The position numbers and the translations under genes were made by a program. The notes beneath the pieces are model-generated. The model ran no database searches. It was not told the DNA's origin and worked only from the letters and a program-made list of their open reading frames with translations. A stretch of DNA of 64,000 nt, from the NCBI GenBank assembly GCA_024679065.1, contig JAGIQG010000013.1, positions 16,306,001 to 16,370,000 of the forward strand. The letters run 5' to 3'. This document shows positions 2,091-50,536 of the stretch, piece after piece. The stretch's first letter is position 1. Each line of letters starts with the position of its first letter. This DNA comes from Sphyrna mokarran. Taxonomy: Eukaryota.

Positions 2091-2263
2091 ATGTGAAAGT
2101 GCTGGCATTGGACTCAGGTGGGCACAGTTAGGAGTATCACAATATGAGCTTTTGAGCGCTGCTCCTTTAACAGGTCTGTGGAGCCACTCACCTGATGAAG
2201 GAGCAGTGCTCCAAAAGCTCATGATTCCAAATAAACCTGTTGGACTTTAACTTGGTGTTGTGG
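2091..2263. mobile_element. Penelope-derived inverted-repeat insertion with degenerate hammerhead motif
   Basis: Exact 13-bp TSD gaatatttttaag (2078-2090 / 2264-2276); cacCTGATGAaggagcagtgctccAAAAgctc at about 2188-2220 facing its reverse complement at about 2134-2175. Confidence 0.8.
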
Positions 2264-8294: not shown

Positions 8295-9284
8295 CAGGAA
8301 TTCTCAAATTGGGTTCCATAGAACCCAGAGGTTTTGCAGGAGTTTCCCAAGGTTTGCACATCAGGGTAGACAAATCAATCCTATTTGAATTTTGCATTGT
8401 TTCCATATTCTCTCAGCAGAGGCTGGCTTCTCCAGAATCTGGAAAAAGCACAGAATTTAAATTATATAGATCAAGGTGAGCCCGGATGAAAGCAGAGCCT
8501 GTGAGGCATAGGAGAGGAGTGGGGTGGTGGAGGGAGGAGAGCGGATTTGGACCTTGGGAAAGGAGAGTCAGCCTGCAAAGGTTAGGAGAGTGGGGCCTAC
8601 AAGGGATGAGAGTGCCATCAGATCTCAGAAAAGATGTTGAAGGGAGTTAATTTTTTGAGGCTCAGAGAAAGATGAGAGATTAGTGTGCGCTTGTGTGAGT
8701 GAGGTTGGATGTGCACTTGTGTGAGTGAAGATGGGTGTGCGCGTGTGTTAGTGAGGATGGGTGTGCGCGTGTGAGTGAGGATGGGTGTGCGCGTGTGTGA
8801 GCGGGGATGGGTGCGCGCGCGTGTGTGAGCGGGGATGGGTGCGCGCGCGCGTGTGAATGAAGGTGGGTGTGCGCGCGTGTGAGCGGGGATGGGTGTGCGC
8901 GCGTGTACGTGTGAGTGAGCATGAGAGCAGGGAAGAGTGTGTGAGCGAGACCGAGAATGAATGAGAAAGAATGAGTGTGTGTGAGCGAATTCCAGGAGCA
9001 ATCCTCCCATTTGAACCAAAGGATCAGCAACACTGTCCCATTATAAATGATGAAGAGGTAAGACTTAAATAAATTTTGTAATGAGAACTTTTTATTATTG
9101 TAAATGTATACATATAAGAAATATAAAAGACTTCCATACATTTGGTTTTTATATGTTTGTCAATATTGTGTGAAAACAATGTCTTTTCTGTTGTTTGGCA
9201 CTTCAAAATACTAGTAATGTTTCATTGGGATCTCTTCAATATTCTTGGGAGGTCAAAAGGGCTGGAAAAGTTTGTGTAACTCTG
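8295..9284. mobile_element. Non-autonomous hAT (Charlie-like) DNA transposon
   Basis: Termini caggaattctcaaa / tttgtgtaactctg; 8-bp flanks ttatggat vs gtatagat (6/8), near the NTCTAGAN target consensus. Confidence 0.6.
8682..8990. repeat. GC/CpG-rich minisatellite, unit about 24-28 bp (gtgagcggggatgggtgtgcgcgt)
   Basis: Roughly ten degenerate tandem units; source of the spurious HT/RA-rich ORFs at 8618-9141. Confidence 0.9.
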
Positions 9285-27679: not shown

Positions 27680-30140
27680 TGTATCCCTCCATCTCTAATC
27701 TGCTCATGTCCTTTCTAGGTAAGCCTTAAACAACCCTAGCATTGTCTGCCTCCACCACCCCACTTAGCAATGCATTCCAAGCCCCCACAACCCTCTGTGT
27801 GAAAAACCTCCCTCAAACAACTGAATTATACCTCACCTTGAGCCTGTGATTTTTCACATCCAAATTAGGAAAAAGCATCACACTGTTCAGTCTATACCCT
27901 TTCATAATTTTATATGCCTCTATTAGGTCGCCCCTCATTCTCCATCTTGCCAGAGAGAACAACTCCAATTTGCCCAACCTCTCCTCATAGCTAAGACCCT
28001 CCATACCAGGCAGCATCCTAATAAACTTCCTCTGCACTCTCTCCAAGGCCGCCACATCCTTCCAGTAGTGTGGTGACCAGAACTGGACACAGTACTACAA
28101 ATATGGTCTAACCAACGAGGTACACAACAGCAACATTAGATGCCAGTTTTTATACTCTATAACCCCTTCCAATGAAGGCAAGCATACCATATGGCGCCTT
28201 CATCACCTGTGCTGCCACCTTCAAGGACTTGCACACCTAGGTCCCTCTGTGTTTCTATATTCTTAATGGCCTTACCATTTATTGGATAGCTACCCCCTAC
28301 ATTATTTCTTCCAAAATGCATCACCTCACATTTACTTGGATTAAATTTCATTTGCCATTTCACTGCACAATGGTAGGATTCTTAATAGTGTTGATGAACA
28401 GAGGGATCTTGGTGTATATGTGCACAGATCCCTGAAAGTAGGCAGTCAAGTCGATAAGGTTGTTAAGAAGGCATATGGAGTCTTAGCTTTTATTGGTAGG
28501 GGGATTGAATTTCGGAGCCGCAACGTCATGTTGCAACTGTACAAACTCTAGTGCGGCCGCACTTGGAGTATTGTGTGCAGTTCTGGTCCCCACATTATAA
28601 GAAAGATGTGGAGGCATTGGAGAGGGTACAGAGGAGGTTTACCAGGATGTTGCCTGGTATGGAGGGCAGGTCTTATGAAGAGAGGCTGAAGGATTTGAGG
28701 TTGTTTTCGTTAGAAAGGAGGCGGCTAAGAGGGGACCTTATCGAAATATATATGATTAGAGGTTTAGATAGGGTGGACAGTGATAGCCTTTTTCCTAGGA
28801 TGGAGAAAGCTAGCACGATGGAAAAACAGCTTTAAATTAAGGGGTGATAGTTATAGGACGGATATCAGAGGTAGGTTCTTTACCCAAAGGGTGGTTCGGG
28901 AGTGGAATGCCCTGCCTGTGGCAGTTGTAGATGCGCGAAGTTTGGTGGCGTTTAAGAGGTTAGTTGATAAGTATATGGAAGAGAAGGGAATGGTTTAGTT
29001 TGGAGGGTCATTGCTTTTTATATTGATTGGCGCAACATCGAAGGCCGAAGGGCCTGTTCTGTGCTGTAATGTTCTATGTTCTATGCTGTATTGTCTGACA
29101 CTGTTCATCACTATCAGCAATTCCAGTCATCTTCGTGTCAGCTGCAAACTTGCTGATCACACCAGTTACTCCCTCTTCCAAATCATTTATATGTATCACA
29201 AAAGCAGCGGTCCCAGTAGAGAGCCCTACAGAACACCACTAGTCACAGACTTCCAGCTAGAAAAAGGTCCTTCCACTGCTACCCTGTTTCCTGTTGCCAA
29301 GCCAATTCTGAACCCATCTAGCCACCTGTCCTTGTATGCCATGAGCCTTAACCTTTTTCACCAATCTGTCATGAGGGACTTTGTCAAATGCCTTATTGAA
29401 ATCCATGTAGAGCTCTTGCTTTGTCAACTGTTTCTATCATCTCCTCAAAAAAATTCCACCAGATTTGTAAGGCACAACCTCTGTTTTACAAAGCCACGTT
29501 GCCTGTAATCAGATTACTATGTTCTAAATGCACGTACATCCTATCTCTAAGAATCTGTCTAACTTCCCTATCACTGACGTCAAGCTCACCAGCCTATAAT
29601 TACCAGGGTTATCCCTACTACCCTTTTTTAAACAGTACCATATTTGCTATCCTTCAATCCTCTGTGACCTTACCTGTGTCTAAAAAAGAGACAAAGATTT
29701 CCTTCAGAGGCCCAGCAATTTCATCTTGTGTCTTCCTAAGCAGCCTAGGATAAATGCCATCAGGCTCTGGAGACTTGTCAGTTTTAATATTACCTAAAAA
29801 CCATTACACTTCTTCCCTTGTAATGGAGATTTTCTCCATCAGGTCAACAACTCACTCCAAGACACTTCCAGACAACAAGTCCCTCTCCTTTGTGAATAAT
29901 GACAAGTATTCATTCAGGATCTCCCCCATTCCCTTGAGCTCTAAACATAATTCCCCTCTTTTGTCCCTAAGAGGACCGATTTTTTTTTTCTCTTAAAAAC
30001 TCTTTTGTTTCTAACACATGAATAAAATGCCTTTGGATTATTCTTAATCTTGTCTGCCAAGACCATTTTGTGACCTCTTTTCGCCCTTCTAACTCCCCAT
30101 TTGAGTTCTCTCCTATTCTCTTTGTATTCCTCCAAAGCTC
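27680..30140 (-). mobile_element. CR1 LINE ORF2 remnant hosting a young CR1
   Basis: [25 protein letters not shown]; WQMKFNPSKCEVMHFGRNN; LADKIKNNPKAFYS. Confidence 0.85.
28369..29085 (+). mobile_element. Young CR1 3' part
   Basis: [35 protein letters not shown]; nearly identical to 46496-47114; (gttctat)n tail. Confidence 0.93.
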
Positions 30141-33179: not shown

Positions 33180-33325
33180 TAAAAAGATATATTAATTATA
33201 TTCAGTGAACCCATAAGAAACAATTTCATTTCTGAACTGAGTATTAATTATAAACCAGGCGTCTAGCACAAGAAAATAAATAGACAGGAAAGTCACCAAC
33301 ATCTGTTAATCTGGCAAATTCTTCA

Positions 33326-33439
33326 CTACAAGTCTAAGTCTTGAAGATTCCCCCAACTTGGACCAATCTTCACTTTGACACAAAGTTTCACTAGCAGTTT
33401 CATGGCATTTTCCATTTCATTTTTCACTATCTGTGCAAT
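33326..33439 (-). CDS. POLQ: POLQ terminal coding exon (ex30 equivalent)
   Basis: IAQIVKNEMENAMKLLVKLCVKVKIGPSWGNLQDLDL*; CATCAG| acceptor, TAG at 33326-33328. Confidence 0.96.
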   Translation of the reverse strand: MAQIVKNEMENAMKLLVKLCVKVKIGPSWGNLQDLDL

Positions 33440-33713
33440 CTGATGAGGGCCAGAGATTGAGAAAAGTGATCAGAAACATAATTTGATTAAATAAATACAC
33501 ACAAGATAGTTTGGAGGACTGTATCCTCTATATTAATTACCCAATCTTTAAACAGAAAAAAAAGTACATCAAAAATTCTGCCTAAAACAAAAACAAAGCA
33601 CAAATGAAACTTAAAACATCAAATCAAAGGATGATTAAAAGAGTTAATGACCACACTCCAGTCCCTGCAGTGCTCAAAAGATGTGGAAGGCCTCAATAGT
33701 ATCCACACACATT

Positions 33714-33852
33714 ATGTAGAGATGCCAGCGTTGGACTGGGGTAAGCTCAGTAAGAGGTCTGACAACACCAATTTTAAATCCAACCAATTTATTTGATAGT
33801 AAACTTGCTAGCTTTCGGCGTTTGCGCCTTCGTCAGGCGAATGAGGTGTTCT
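33714..33852 (-). mobile_element. Penelope-derived terminal fragment in last POLQ intron
   Basis: atgtagagatgccagcgttggactgggg...; same family as 38128-38359. Confidence 0.8.
33805..33841 (-). ncRNA. Minimal type I hammerhead ribozyme motif
   Basis: TTCGC CTGACGA A GGCG CAAA CGCC GAA AGCT A GCAA: complete core, 4-bp stem II, palindromic stem III, short stem I. Confidence 0.65.
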
Positions 33853-34695
33853 AATCTCCAAAAGCACACATATACACATAGCCAGCTCTGGTTTTATATC
33901 CCAGCCCACTTCCATTCCCCCACAAGTAACCCCTCTCCCCCCAACCAACCCTGCCTGCTTCCTCTATCACCCCCTACTGCCCTTGGTCCTTGTCTACCTC
34001 CAATTCCCTAACTCCCCCAATCCGTGCCCTCCTCCATTCCCCCGCACATCCCTACCTCACCTCCGACCAACATTCCCTCTCCACACCCTAGTCCCCCTCT
34101 GTTCCCTCGCCCTCCTTTTCGTCCCACAGGATGTACCAAGATTAGATCTGCATCTGAACAATTGCTATAATCTTATATCCTTACTCTGTATCTTCTAATA
34201 GCTTTCTTTTTTGTATTACTGATGGGCAGCAATGCATTTAATATTCTAATATTTCTTTGTGTGAAAAGGTTCCTGGCTATCTTCGTTATTAATACTAAAT
34301 TTATGCACTTTTTTAAACCAATTTATTTGTGGAAAAGATTTTTCACTACCTATTTGATCATTTTGAACACTCTAATAGCTCTCCCCTTCTAATACAAACT
34401 TATTTTTTCAAGTTTTTCGACATAACTAAATCTACTGATTGTCTCGTTAGTAAATTTGTGTTAAAAGCCTTCTCCAAAATCTTTACATAATGGGGTTTGC
34501 AAAATCACTACTTCAACTTTAGCTTTTCTACCGAGTTACATAGATGCATCGTTACATCCAAGCTGTTGCATTCATCGTACACTCAGCATTCAATTAGCTT
34601 GTTTTCTGTTTTTTCATAGTATTTTGAGACTGAAATGAGCACTTTTTGAAAAAAAGACAATGTAAATTAAATGAACAAATTCTTCACACTCCCAC

Positions 34696-34811
34696 CTGTA
34701 TCAGGTCATTTTCTGCAACTTCATAAAGTAGCTCATCATGTAATTGCAAGATGAAAAAGCCTCCACTCTCTGGTCGGTAAGTTTCTCGCTGTTTTTTCCT
34801 TTCAATCATGT
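34696..34811 (-). CDS. POLQ: POLQ exon (ex29 equivalent), motif C
   Basis: 116 nt; DMIERKKQRETYRPESGGFFILQLHDELLYEVAENDLIQ; catalytic HDE. Confidence 0.96.
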
Positions 34812-35029
34812 CTACATTTGGGTACAAATATCAATTAATCTCAAATTACAAATTTCAACCAAGGTGATCACAATCTCCTCCCAACCTCATGACATGATTA
34901 GAATTTAAATGTCATCAAATGTACCTACAGTTCCAGAAAATAAATTAGATTTCAAATTCAATCATAGGGCAGGAGGCAAACGTTTCATTTCTCTCATCCA
35001 TTTCCTTCCCCCTCAAAACTACTATAAAT

Positions 35030-37930: not shown

Positions 37931-38022
37931 ATGATGTGGAGTTGCCAGCGTTGGACTGAGCCCAGTCTAATGTCGGCATCTCCATATCATGACTACCACT
38001 GACACCACAAACTGGACTTCTC
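37931..38022. mobile_element. Penelope-derived fold-back of the terminal 30 bp
   Basis: atgatgtggagttgccagcgttggactgag directly followed by cccagtctaatgtcggcatctccatatcat; flanks tctgtacattta / tctgtgcactta (10/12). Confidence 0.65.
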
Positions 38023-38127: not shown

Positions 38128-38359
38128 GTCATGATGCCGGCGTTGGACTGGGGTAAACTCAGTAAAGTCTGGCAACACCAATTTTAAATCCAACCGATTT
38201 ATTTGATAGTAAACTCGTGAGCTTTCGGCCTTTGTGGCCTTCGTCAGGTGAATGAGGTGTTCTGACATGCCTGATGAAGGCCACAAAGGCCAAAGGTCAC
38301 GAGTTTACTATCAAATAAATCAGTTGGATTTAAAATTGGTGTTGCCAAACTTTACTGAG
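38128..38359. mobile_element. Penelope-derived palindromic insertion with hammerhead motif
   Basis: About 90-bp inverted arms (38158-38248 / 38270-38359); exact 13-bp TSD caaaacatttgaa (38115-38127 / 38360-38372). Confidence 0.88.
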
Positions 38360-38894
38360 CAAAACATTTGAACACAGCAGTGAAACAGCTATGTCTTTAA
38401 ACTGATACAGTGCAGCTTCCATGGGCAATTATAACGATCATCACCTTGAAATTCTAAAAGGCTTTTACCGTGATCCAGAGAGAATCTATTCAATATCCCA
38501 ACTACTTTACACTGCATTCTACTGATTAGATTAGGCAGCTTTAAAAAGTGCTTACAGAATCCAACTTAACTCCTCGGTAACTTGTAAACCAAATTTACAA
38601 TGAATTTACACTCCATGCAACTGCAATTCCAATCAATGCAAGGTTACAGGAATTCTTACTTCTTGCATTTCAAAATCAGACTAAGTCCTGATTCTAGATT
38701 TATATGTTAAACACTCACACTAAACTTGCAGCATAAATGTACTAAAGAGTAATTTTATCCATATACAAATGCTCATTCAATCAAACAGACTACTGGAAAG
38801 ACTGATTATGGACTAGTTTTTTAAATCTTGCATCAAACAGAATCCAATTTTAAGTTGACAACTATAACTTCATCAGAGTGAGATTTGGAGAATT

Positions 38895-46127: not shown

Positions 46128-47308
46128 CATACACTTAGAATATAGTGTTCAATTCTGGTTGCCACACTACCAGAAAGATGTGGAAGCTTTGTAGTGGGTA
46201 CAGAAAAGGTTTACAAGAATGTTGCCTGGTATGGAGGGGATTAGCTTTGAGGAGAGGTTGGAAAAACTTGTGTCCTCACTGGAGTAACCGAGGTTGAGGG
46301 GCGATCTGATAGGAGTCTACAAGATTACAAGGGGCATAGATAGACTAGATAGCCAGAAGCTTTTTCCCAGGGTGGAAGAGCCAATTACTAGGGGCCATAG
46401 GTTTAAGGTGCGAGGGACAAGGTTTAAAGGAGATGTACGAGGCAGGTTTTTTTTACACAGAGGGTTGTGAGTGCCTGGAACTCACTGCTGGGGGAACATA
46501 GAACATTACAGCACAGAACAGGCCCTTCGGCCTTCGATGTTGCGCCGACCAATATAAAAAGCAATGCCCCTCCAAACTAAACCATTCCCTTCTCTTCCAT
46601 ATACTTATCAACTAACCTCTTAAACGCCACCAAACTTGGCGCATCTACAACTGCTGCAGGCAGGGCATTCCACTCCCGAACCACCCTTTGGGTAAAGAAC
46701 CTGCCTCTGATATCCGTCCTATAACTATCACCCCTTAATTTAAAGCTGTGTCCCCTCGTGCTAGCTTTCTCCATCCTAGGAAAAAGGCTATCACTGTCCA
46801 CCCTATCTAAACCTCTAATCATCTTATATGTTTCGATCAGGTCCCCTCTTAGCCTCCTCCTTTCTAACGAAAACAACCTCAAATCCCTCAGCCTCTCCTC
46901 ATAAGACCTGCCCTCCATACCAGGCAACATCCTGGTAAACCTCCTCTGTACCCTCTCCAATGCCTCCACATCTTTCTTATAATGTGGGGACCAGAACTGC
47001 ACACAATACTCCAAGTGCGGCCGCACTAGAGTTTTGTACAGTTGCAACATGACGTTGCGGCTCCGAAATTCAATCCCTCTACCAATAAAAGCCAAGGCTC
47101 CATATGCCTTCCTATGGGGGAGGTAGTGGAAGCAGATACATTAGTGAGTTTTAAGAGATGTCTGAACAAACACACATGAATAGAATGGGAATGGAGGGAT
47201 ATGGTTCCCAAAAGAGTAGGGAGTTTCAGTTCAATCAGGCAACATGGTTGGTGCAAGCTTGGAGGGCTGAAGAGCCTGTTCCTGTGCTGTAATTTTCTAT
47301 GTTCTTTA
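46128..47308 (+). mobile_element. CR1 3' part, split by a young inverted CR1
   Basis: HLEYSVQFWLPHYQKDVEAL; host resumes at 47115; ttctatgttc tail ends about 47304. Confidence 0.88.
46496..47114 (-). mobile_element. Young CR1 3' part with uninterrupted 172-aa frame
   Basis: ORF 46577-47095; TSD tggggga (46489-46495 / 47115-47121). Confidence 0.95.
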
Positions 47309-48380: not shown

Positions 48381-49503
48381 TGTGACACACCCACAACCAG
48401 TATTTTTGTATAAGAAAAGATAAAATTCTAGTTAAATTCATGTTAAACAAAGCTGTTTATATGTATGAGGGTTTCAATTCAAATTGTGGCTGCACTGTGC
48501 TGACAGAGTTTACAGCACAGGAAGTAAATAAAAGCTTGGAGAAAAAAAATGAGCTGTTACTTAGCAACCAGGGACCACGTTCGAGAAAAAAAACCTTTTT
48601 GAGTACTTGGCTGAACTCAAAAGACAGGAGAAGGAGCTTAGCAGCTAGAGAGAGAACATCTCTCTCAGTCATGCCTGAGGCAGAAACGAAACCATGGGCA
48701 AGAAAGCAAGCGCCAAAGAAAATTAAAGAACAGTTAGTTCTAGAAGCCAGAGAATGAAAGATACATTCCAAAAAAGTTTGAAGTCAAAGTTTGAAGCAAC
48801 TGGAATGGAACAGGATATTGTTCATTAAGTTAAATACTTAAAAGGAGTGAGAACTGGGAAAATCAGCTATTGAGGAGCCAGAGATATTTGCAGTGATCCT
48901 AAGTTTGTTATGTTTTATGATAGTCTGTGAAGCCATTGGTGGCTGGATCTGAGAGATTCTGTGGGTGGTGCACATGGCAATGCAAGACAAAGGAATACTG
49001 AAAGAAACGTTGTAAAACCTGGAAGCAAGACAGCTGAGGAAAAGCACTATGTGAAAGAAGATTTTAAGGTGAGTCTTTCGACAGTGGAGTTTGGAAACAC
49101 TCGTGTGACAATGATCTACGGGGAGTTTGAGGTGAAATCCAGAGAAGTTTGAAGGAGTGGCATCTGCCACTGGGTTTCAGAGTAGAATCCTGCCTGCCCA
49201 TAGTTGGTGCATGGAGTGCAAGGGATTGTGTGTTTACTGAGAACATTGCAACACAAGATATATGCTATAAACATGTGTTATCCTTAAAATTCATACATAT
49301 CTGTGAAGATAAGGAGTGAAGAAGTATTGCACTATAGTGAATTTTTTCTTTTTTTTTTTGCATAATTTTTTTGTTGGTAAAAGCTAATTGACAGCCCTGT
49401 GACTCTGTTCCTCGACACTTTTCAAAAGAAAATAAAAGTTTTGAGCCAGGGTTCCGTTCTCTGAACTTGCCGGCCACGAATAACACCAACTGAAGTCGTA
49501 GCA
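48381..49503 (+). mobile_element. Possible solo LTR (gypsy/ERV-like)
   Basis: Begins tgtgac, ends gtcgtagca, AATAAA near 49431, composition unlike flanks; no matching TSD found. Confidence 0.3.
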
Positions 49504-49860: not shown

Positions 49861-50246
49861 CTGAAACATAAATATATGAAGCAAAATTTAAAAGCATTGT
49901 CTTTGTTAACTTCTGTACACCACTGCTACATACTGTACAATTTTACAGTAAGTCATAGAGCGAGTGACCAGAAGCCTATACCAAGTACTAAGTAATTACT
50001 AAGATTAGTCCGACTGTAAAATAAATGGTGCACCTTGAAAAGTGATAATTAGTTTCAATACAGATACTTAGCTCTATAGTTCATTTTTAAAAATATATTT
50101 AAAATGTCCTAGAATGCACTTCTATACAGCAATACTAAGGACACCACCCTTTCAAATCCAGATAATAAAAGCACCCCAACACACCAAGCCAAACGAACAA
50201 GAAAAATCCCGAGGCAGAGGGGAAAGGCTTATTTGTCGAGAGTAAC

Positions 50247-50536
50247 AGTAAGAAGTCTCACAACACTAAGTTAAAATCCAGTTGGTAGTACGAGCTTTCG
50301 GAGCATTGCCCTTTCATCAGGTGAATGAAGAGTTCAGTTCACAAACATATAATAGTTGGAATGTGTTTCTTAACAGGTAATCAAGTCTTTACAAGTGCAG
50401 ACAATGTGAGTGGAGAGAGGTTTTAGCACAAGTTAAACAAGTGTGAATTGTTCCCAGCCAGGACAGTTAGTGAGATTTTGCAAGCCCAGGCAAGTCATAG
50501 GGGTGAAGAGGAGGGGCTTGCTGGCAACTCCACATC
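50247..50536 (-). mobile_element. Penelope-derived insertion with hammerhead motif and inverted terminal piece
   Basis: - strand CAC CTGATGA AAGGGC AAT GCTCC GAA AGCT C GTA (50289-50323); inverted gctggcaactccacatc at 50520-50536; flanks ttgtcgagagtaac / ttgtcaacagtaac (12/14). Confidence 0.78.

Follow-up and report, generated by a model that had tools for sequence, protein, structure and literature searches.

A Penelope-like minimal hammerhead motif in the last coding intron of POLQ in Sphyrna mokarran is likely an inert passenger

The last coding intron of POLQ in the shark Sphyrna mokarran contains, on its sense strand, a motif with every core nucleotide of a minimal type-I hammerhead ribozyme, and the question that this raises is whether the POLQ transcript is cut there. 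We addressed it in a 64,000-nucleotide stretch of contig JAGIQG010000013.1 (the window, to which all coordinates given without a contig name refer). The motif is best explained as the hammerhead of a terminal repeat of a Penelope-like element (PLE), carried in a truncated insertion of approximately 166 nt, and in POLQ it is probably an inert passenger, removed uncut by splicing. We give this reading a probability of roughly 0.88.

An earlier note on this DNA had described a core-complete minimal hammerhead on the sense strand of the last POLQ intron, and direct reading of the letters confirms it. The motif lies at 33841-33805 of the minus strand, the strand on which POLQ is coded, within an intron of 1,256 nt that runs from GT at 34695 to AG at 33440 (minus strand). 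This intron is bounded by the last two coding exons, the coding part of the final one, stop codon included, occupying 33326-33439 (minus strand). DNA polymerase theta chains are the top PDB matches of the exon at 37.4 kb (E 1.7e-13). POLQ may have an additional intron in its 3'-UTR, the host intron being the last coding one. The motif opens with the 5' arm of stem I, continues with C3 (at 33836) U4 G5 A6 C7 G8 A9, an extra A and a stem II of 4 bp capped by a loop of 4 nt, and ends with G12 A13 A14, an AGCU palindrome, A17 and the 3' arm. The cleavage triplet is CUA, and H17, the A at 33809, is the predicted cut site, 369 nt upstream of the intron's acceptor. Completeness, as claimed for the motif, applies to its core; stem I has a C-A mismatch that had gone unmentioned. 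Two pairs are followed by this mismatch at the third and then by U-A, U-G and A-U, where the description of the PLE minimal hammerheads (min-HHR) gives 4-5 bp. The mismatch is the usual state of the subfamily and is present in 28 of the 29 nearest copies.

The CTGANGA box on its own occurs in the window at chance level (37 against 38.8 expected). The motif as a whole is not a product of chance, because it belongs to a repeat family: the pattern of its subfamily has 1,090 exact matches in the genome and the reversed control has none. A scan of the window against Rfam at E<=5 gave no match to a hammerhead model and only four weak matches to unrelated ones.

The family can be placed. Metazoan PLE min-HHRs were described in 2014, with thousands of copies, mostly solo, in vertebrate genomes (PMC4209133). 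The core of that class (C3 U4 G5 A6 N7 G8 A9, G12 A13 A14, A15.1, U16.1 and H17) is present in the window motif, together with a stem III without a loop (AGCU, palindromic at 15.1-16.1), an extra nucleotide that separates position 9 from 10.1, and the pair G10.1-C11.1. What it shares with the published motifs is the type-I core, a loopless stem III with palindromic positions 15.2-16.2, the extra nucleotide after A9 and before 10.1, G10.1-C11.1 and a short stem I, and beyond these the occurrence of solo truncated copies, of many subfamilies with compensatory changes and of opposite-strand pairs (PMC4209133). It differs in that stem II has 3-4 bp here and 7-8 bp in the Schistosoma min-HHR families, and its fixed C-A mismatch in stem I sets the window subfamily apart (PMC4209133). 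The window motif is a further copy of the RNA class described in 2014, and the earlier assignment to the dimer type of minimal PLE hammerheads is supported. A monomeric min-HHR gave no detectable cleavage and dimers a low activity (PMC4209133). The hosts that we found named in that paper are fishes, coelacanth, Xenopus and reptiles, with no shark among them. A preprint on non-LTR retrozymes sampled one genome from the Chondrichthyes (bioRxiv 10.64898/2026.07.22.740005). Our search of the literature, mostly outside subscription journals, found no paper on shark PLE hammerheads; the supplements of PMC4209133 or of the preprint may list the family.

To characterise the host element we searched the animal's own genome (2.77 Gb) with 156 nt around the motif and scored the best 40 of 1,664 candidates. 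Among these 40, 29 non-self loci are 95-97% identical to the fragment in the window, and nearly all of the 29 stop at one common 3' point about 100 nt beyond the motif, with 5' cut-off points that vary. The window fragment is accordingly read as a 5'-truncated 3' end of a PLE (pLTR plus tail) at 33714-33879 on the minus strand, about 166 nt long with a 5' edge uncertain by about 6 nt. The letters ACACAT at 33707-33712 (plus strand) recur at 33874-33879 and form a possible 6-nt target-site duplication, short and of low complexity. Many short copies among L035-L104 break or invert within or beside the hammerhead.

Longer relatives show what such an element looks like when it is less truncated. 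One copy, L011, matches the window fragment at 93% identity across 175 nt and includes an ORF's terminal part, with a GIY-YIG domain (E 4.6e-4, under the Pfam cut-off). A genome search with this protein end found open frames of up to 905 codons among the best 150 of 32,134 candidates, and six long-frame regions were taken from these matches for closer reading. L170 (C1:56160500-56165500) is a near-complete PLE in which two hammerheads flank an open frame of 859 codons; the frame opens at the motif and matches RVT_1 (E 2.7e-9). L168 (C113:41101500-41111400) is a near-complete PLE array, both tandem and inverted, whose identical hammerheads suggest recent activity. Direct terminal repeats with a hammerhead on either side of the ORF are seen in L170 and in the tandem L168. 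The single ORF with reverse transcriptase and C-terminal GIY-YIG is found in the relative L165, where RVT_1 (E 1.6e-9) and GIY-YIG (E 2.6e-4, just under the Pfam cut-off) share one 905-codon frame; it is absent from the window fragment. The long-ORF copies that we examined are only 77-81% identical to that fragment and therefore represent related subfamilies, not its direct source.

These features invite comparison with known elements. A cysteine linker motif precedes GIY-YIG in L011, L006 and L170 and matches, compared by description, that of the endonuclease-bearing PLEs Neptune and Nematis; those elements bear the endonuclease, whereas the window copy is without coding sequence (PMC8557442). 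The Anolis carolinensis Poseidon element PAc is alike in two respects, the overlap of the hammerhead with the start of the ORF, as in the L170 frame, and copies with a common 3' end some 100 nt beyond the motif (PMC11167929). Retrozymes are similar in having a type-I hammerhead from a PLE pLTR, but they are arrayed in tandem, each unit having its hammerhead, and the window has a single fragment (bioRxiv 10.64898/2026.07.22.740005). A retrozyme comprises at least two consecutive tandem units with complete hammerheads, and the nearest same-strand copy to our single fragment is 4.4 kb away. On the reading that we prefer, target-primed reverse transcription of a PLE RNA would have started at the common 3' end and halted after about 166 nt. 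The motif would serve the RNA of the source element, in which paired terminal repeats (a dimer) or the element's own protein may allow cleavage, as published relatives suggest.

The age of the insertion was assessed with contigs from four runs (organisms A, B, D and E), compared with positions 33200-34900 of the window. In one contig of one run, from organism E, 33697 is joined to 33880 with 16 other letters between them; the window likewise has 16 letters between 33697 and the end of the element at 33714, and the insertion is therefore placed at approximately 33714-33879. This empty site is a single contig, and its short side (46 nt) falls in another repeat. For organisms A, B and D, no contig among the pieces listed bridges the insertion. 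A second high-copy repeat adjoins the PLE insertion at 33584-33697; it is also present in organisms D and E and therefore predates the insertion. The core is probably intact because the insertion is young.

An intact core is in any case ordinary in this genome. The earlier note had implied that an intact hammerhead is rare, and the copy number contradicts this: a broader core-intact pattern has at least 9,031 matches in the genome and none in the reversed control, an undercount, since the stems of the long-frame copies fall outside the pattern. The AGCU palindrome is enforced by the pattern. The count amounts to a mean spacing of 307 kb between core-intact copies, so that a stretch of 64 kb should hold 0.21 of them, and at that density an intronic copy on the sense strand is expected. 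A sample chosen independently of the core was obtained with a 29-nt anchor in the 3' flank, which has 1,560 matches; the first 73 on contig C1 were taken, 38 of them were set aside because a truncation or rearrangement came before the 5' side of the hammerhead, and 35 were left. The whole core is kept in 23 of these 35 copies, and in 13 of the 35 G10.1-C11.1, stem III and pairs 1 and 2 of stem I have survived too. Among 38 copies that had been chosen without regard to A9.1, 35 have it. Outside CpG, divergence from the commonest letter of the column is 10/315 in the core versus 32/1363 in flank and loop (p=0.42), the pattern that young copies decaying neutrally should show. Core Gs in a CpG context had changed in 4/70 cases versus 14/70 for non-core Gs (p=0.02, post hoc), which fits selection in the source elements; weak selection on the inserted copies would give the same result.

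Stem II had been called perfect, and its differences between the copies at 33.8, 38.2 and 2.2 kb had been taken as covariation. All 4 bp of the window motif are indeed paired, but the fourth pair is nearly private to it. The form GGCG-CAAA-CGCC occurs in 4 of the 1,090 subfamily matches, two of the four being one inverted pair, and every one of the 29 nearest copies has A at the fourth position, the stem of the subfamily being three pairs long. The fourth pair is likely a chance point change and not a compensatory one, which removes the case for covariation that had been built on these three copies. The copy at 2.2 kb is a PLE hammerhead outside POLQ (2184-2232, plus strand); it is on the opposite strand, lies 31 kb past the stop codon of POLQ and no longer has G12. 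We also considered whether the private G worsens the fold by way of a longer competing hairpin; the hairpin was lengthened, yet P(10.1-11.1) was 0.49, beside a median of 0.46 for 20 relatives, with no net effect.

The more general claim that the stems stay paired by covariation is upheld, in that stems I and II covary across subfamilies. This was seen in a set of 42 rows, made up of the window copy and 41 others hand-picked for diversity from the first 100 core-intact matches to a pattern that fixed three pairs and the core, with 500 shuffles as the test and not R-scape. Pairing cells made up 84.6% of the set versus 77.1+/-1.0 in the shuffles, and 34 cells had changed on both sides versus 13.2+/-3.2, a value reached in 0/500 shuffles. 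Measures of pair count and pair type in the same 42 rows were not above the shuffles (442/500 and 72/500). The ACGU variant of stem III with the same flanking pattern has 0 matches in the genome, and therefore no covariation of stem III was seen. The covariation speaks for function in the lineage of the mobile element, not at the POLQ locus.

How would the motif behave in the POLQ transcript? We predicted secondary structures with ViennaRNA, which models neither hammerhead tertiary folding nor help from protein. At 33.8 kb the predictions favour competing hairpins over the hammerhead fold as the ground state, and the probability of the first stem I pair is 0.18 for the motif alone and 0.0 with 100-300 nt of context. 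For the self-dimer, prediction places the minimum (-26.2) in a structure other than the double hammerhead, a weak result in that the comparison structure (-16.5) omitted stem I. The motif had been said to have no antisense arm to mask it, and this is true within 1.5 kb, a distance at which 9 of 14 full motifs sampled do have an inverted arm; an 82-nt arm of 82% complementarity is nevertheless present in the same pre-mRNA, 4.4 kb away at about 38.3 kb. Meaningful cleavage at POLQ is not to be expected, because stem III is loopless, no competent co-transcribed partner lies nearby and stem I is weak, and the POLQ intron would be spliced out with the motif uncut.

The alternative that survives best is that the solo motif is cut at a low rate with the help of the family's RT-endonuclease protein or of a related transcript acting in trans, the exons still being joined with little effect on POLQ. 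We judge this unlikely. The complete core of the motif speaks for it, as do the open frames of the related subfamilies, so that protein could be made, and the PLE hammerhead of Anolis cleaves only with the element's protein (PMC11167929). Slow cuts by intronic hammerheads have left splicing unblocked, so such a cut need not prevent it (Dye 2006 and Fong 2009, second-hand via PMC2995048). Set against this are the modest identity between the window fragment and the long-ORF copies examined, and the result that even in Anolis no RNA-seq ends were found at the cut site (PMC11167929). PAc, of a different PLE clade, is the one element for which protein-assisted cleavage has been shown. A broader version, in which thousands of intronic solo core-intact PLE hammerheads form a latent network that PLE protein helps to fold and that cuts host pre-mRNAs, including that of the DNA-repair polymerase POLQ just ahead of its last exon, strikes us as only about half as probable as this alternative.

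The earlier note had proposed that the 33.8-kb copy could find partners in those at 38.2 and 50.3 kb within one pre-mRNA, forming a double hammerhead that cuts at 33809. It was right that all three are on the POLQ sense strand, and as all retain AGCU their stems III could pair (-4.5 kcal/mol). As cleavage partners they fail. The 38.2-kb copy (C3 at 38247) belongs to an inverted pair of PLE ends at 38133-38360; it has lost pair 1.1-2.1 (A at 1.1), and it is predicted to be buried in a long hairpin of inverted repeats whose other side is its antisense arm at 38269-38360 (P(10.1-11.1)=0.0). The 50.3-kb copy (C3 at 50320), in a diverged PLE end of another subfamily at 50246-50504 on the minus strand, is without G10.1, and so without G10.1-C11.1, and without most of stem I. 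Not one of the six cross-pairings has an intact stem I, each being mismatched somewhere in its first three pairs, and when the 33.8-kb copy is the strand to be cut, pairs 2 and 3 are mismatched with either partner (duplex +1.6 kcal/mol). The three copies also lie in different introns: that at 38.2 kb is 4.4 kb from the 33.8-kb copy with no fewer than two exons between, and that at 50.3 kb is 16.5 kb from it with no fewer than four (the separating exons are at about 47.5, 43.0, 37.4 and 34.7 kb). Upstream introns are usually spliced out before the last intron is transcribed, which counts further against partnership. We attach next to no probability to this model.

For the POLQ pre-mRNA, prediction gives a hairpin some 80 bp long between the inverted PLE ends at 38133-38360, and long duplexes of this kind could be substrates for A-to-I editing. 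A further short inverted fragment of a PLE 3' end lies 200 nt from this pair, at 37931-37973. Other features of the window include two overlapping open frames within the POLQ span, at 48386-48757 (plus strand, 123 codons) and 48457-48783 (minus strand, 108 codons), of which the first has no Pfam match; they may be due to chance or belong to a region with an unmapped exon. Two LINE-like 3' ends, which we take to be CR1-like, lie about 18 kb apart at 28464-29081 and 46494-47114, one downstream of POLQ and one within it, and are 95-99% complementary. A degenerate GT-rich minisatellite of about 10 units of 26-28 nt occupies 8653-8950.

Among known intronic ribozymes, the RECK-type hammerheads and the CPEB3 ribozyme have in common with this motif a self-cleaving motif class on the sense strand of an intron, the window motif being known from its sequence. 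The CPEB3 intronic ribozyme is conserved across species and acts as a single unit. RECK-type hammerheads of amniotes are also conserved across species and are single units, whereas the window motif is a lineage-restricted repeat with a loopless stem III (PMC6155905). Domestication as a RECK-like regulator of last-intron splicing or 3'-end formation in POLQ is scarcely credible, since the sense strand, the last intron, the full core, the lack of a local antisense arm and the existence of domesticated intronic hammerheads (PMC6155905) are outweighed by an orthologous site that is empty in the one contig from organism E, by 95-97% identity to dispersed copies with preservation no better than that of the majority, and by the lack of the looped stem III of canonical hammerheads.

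If the motif in POLQ is, as we believe, a passenger left by a truncated PLE insertion, then the locus itself matters little and the family to which it belongs is more useful, with its at least 9,031 intact motifs, its many subfamilies and the near-complete elements alongside them. Given an annotated genome, one could use this family to test for in vivo cutting of host transcripts by minimal PLE hammerheads; such cutting would be expected to deplete the sense strand of introns of intact copies.
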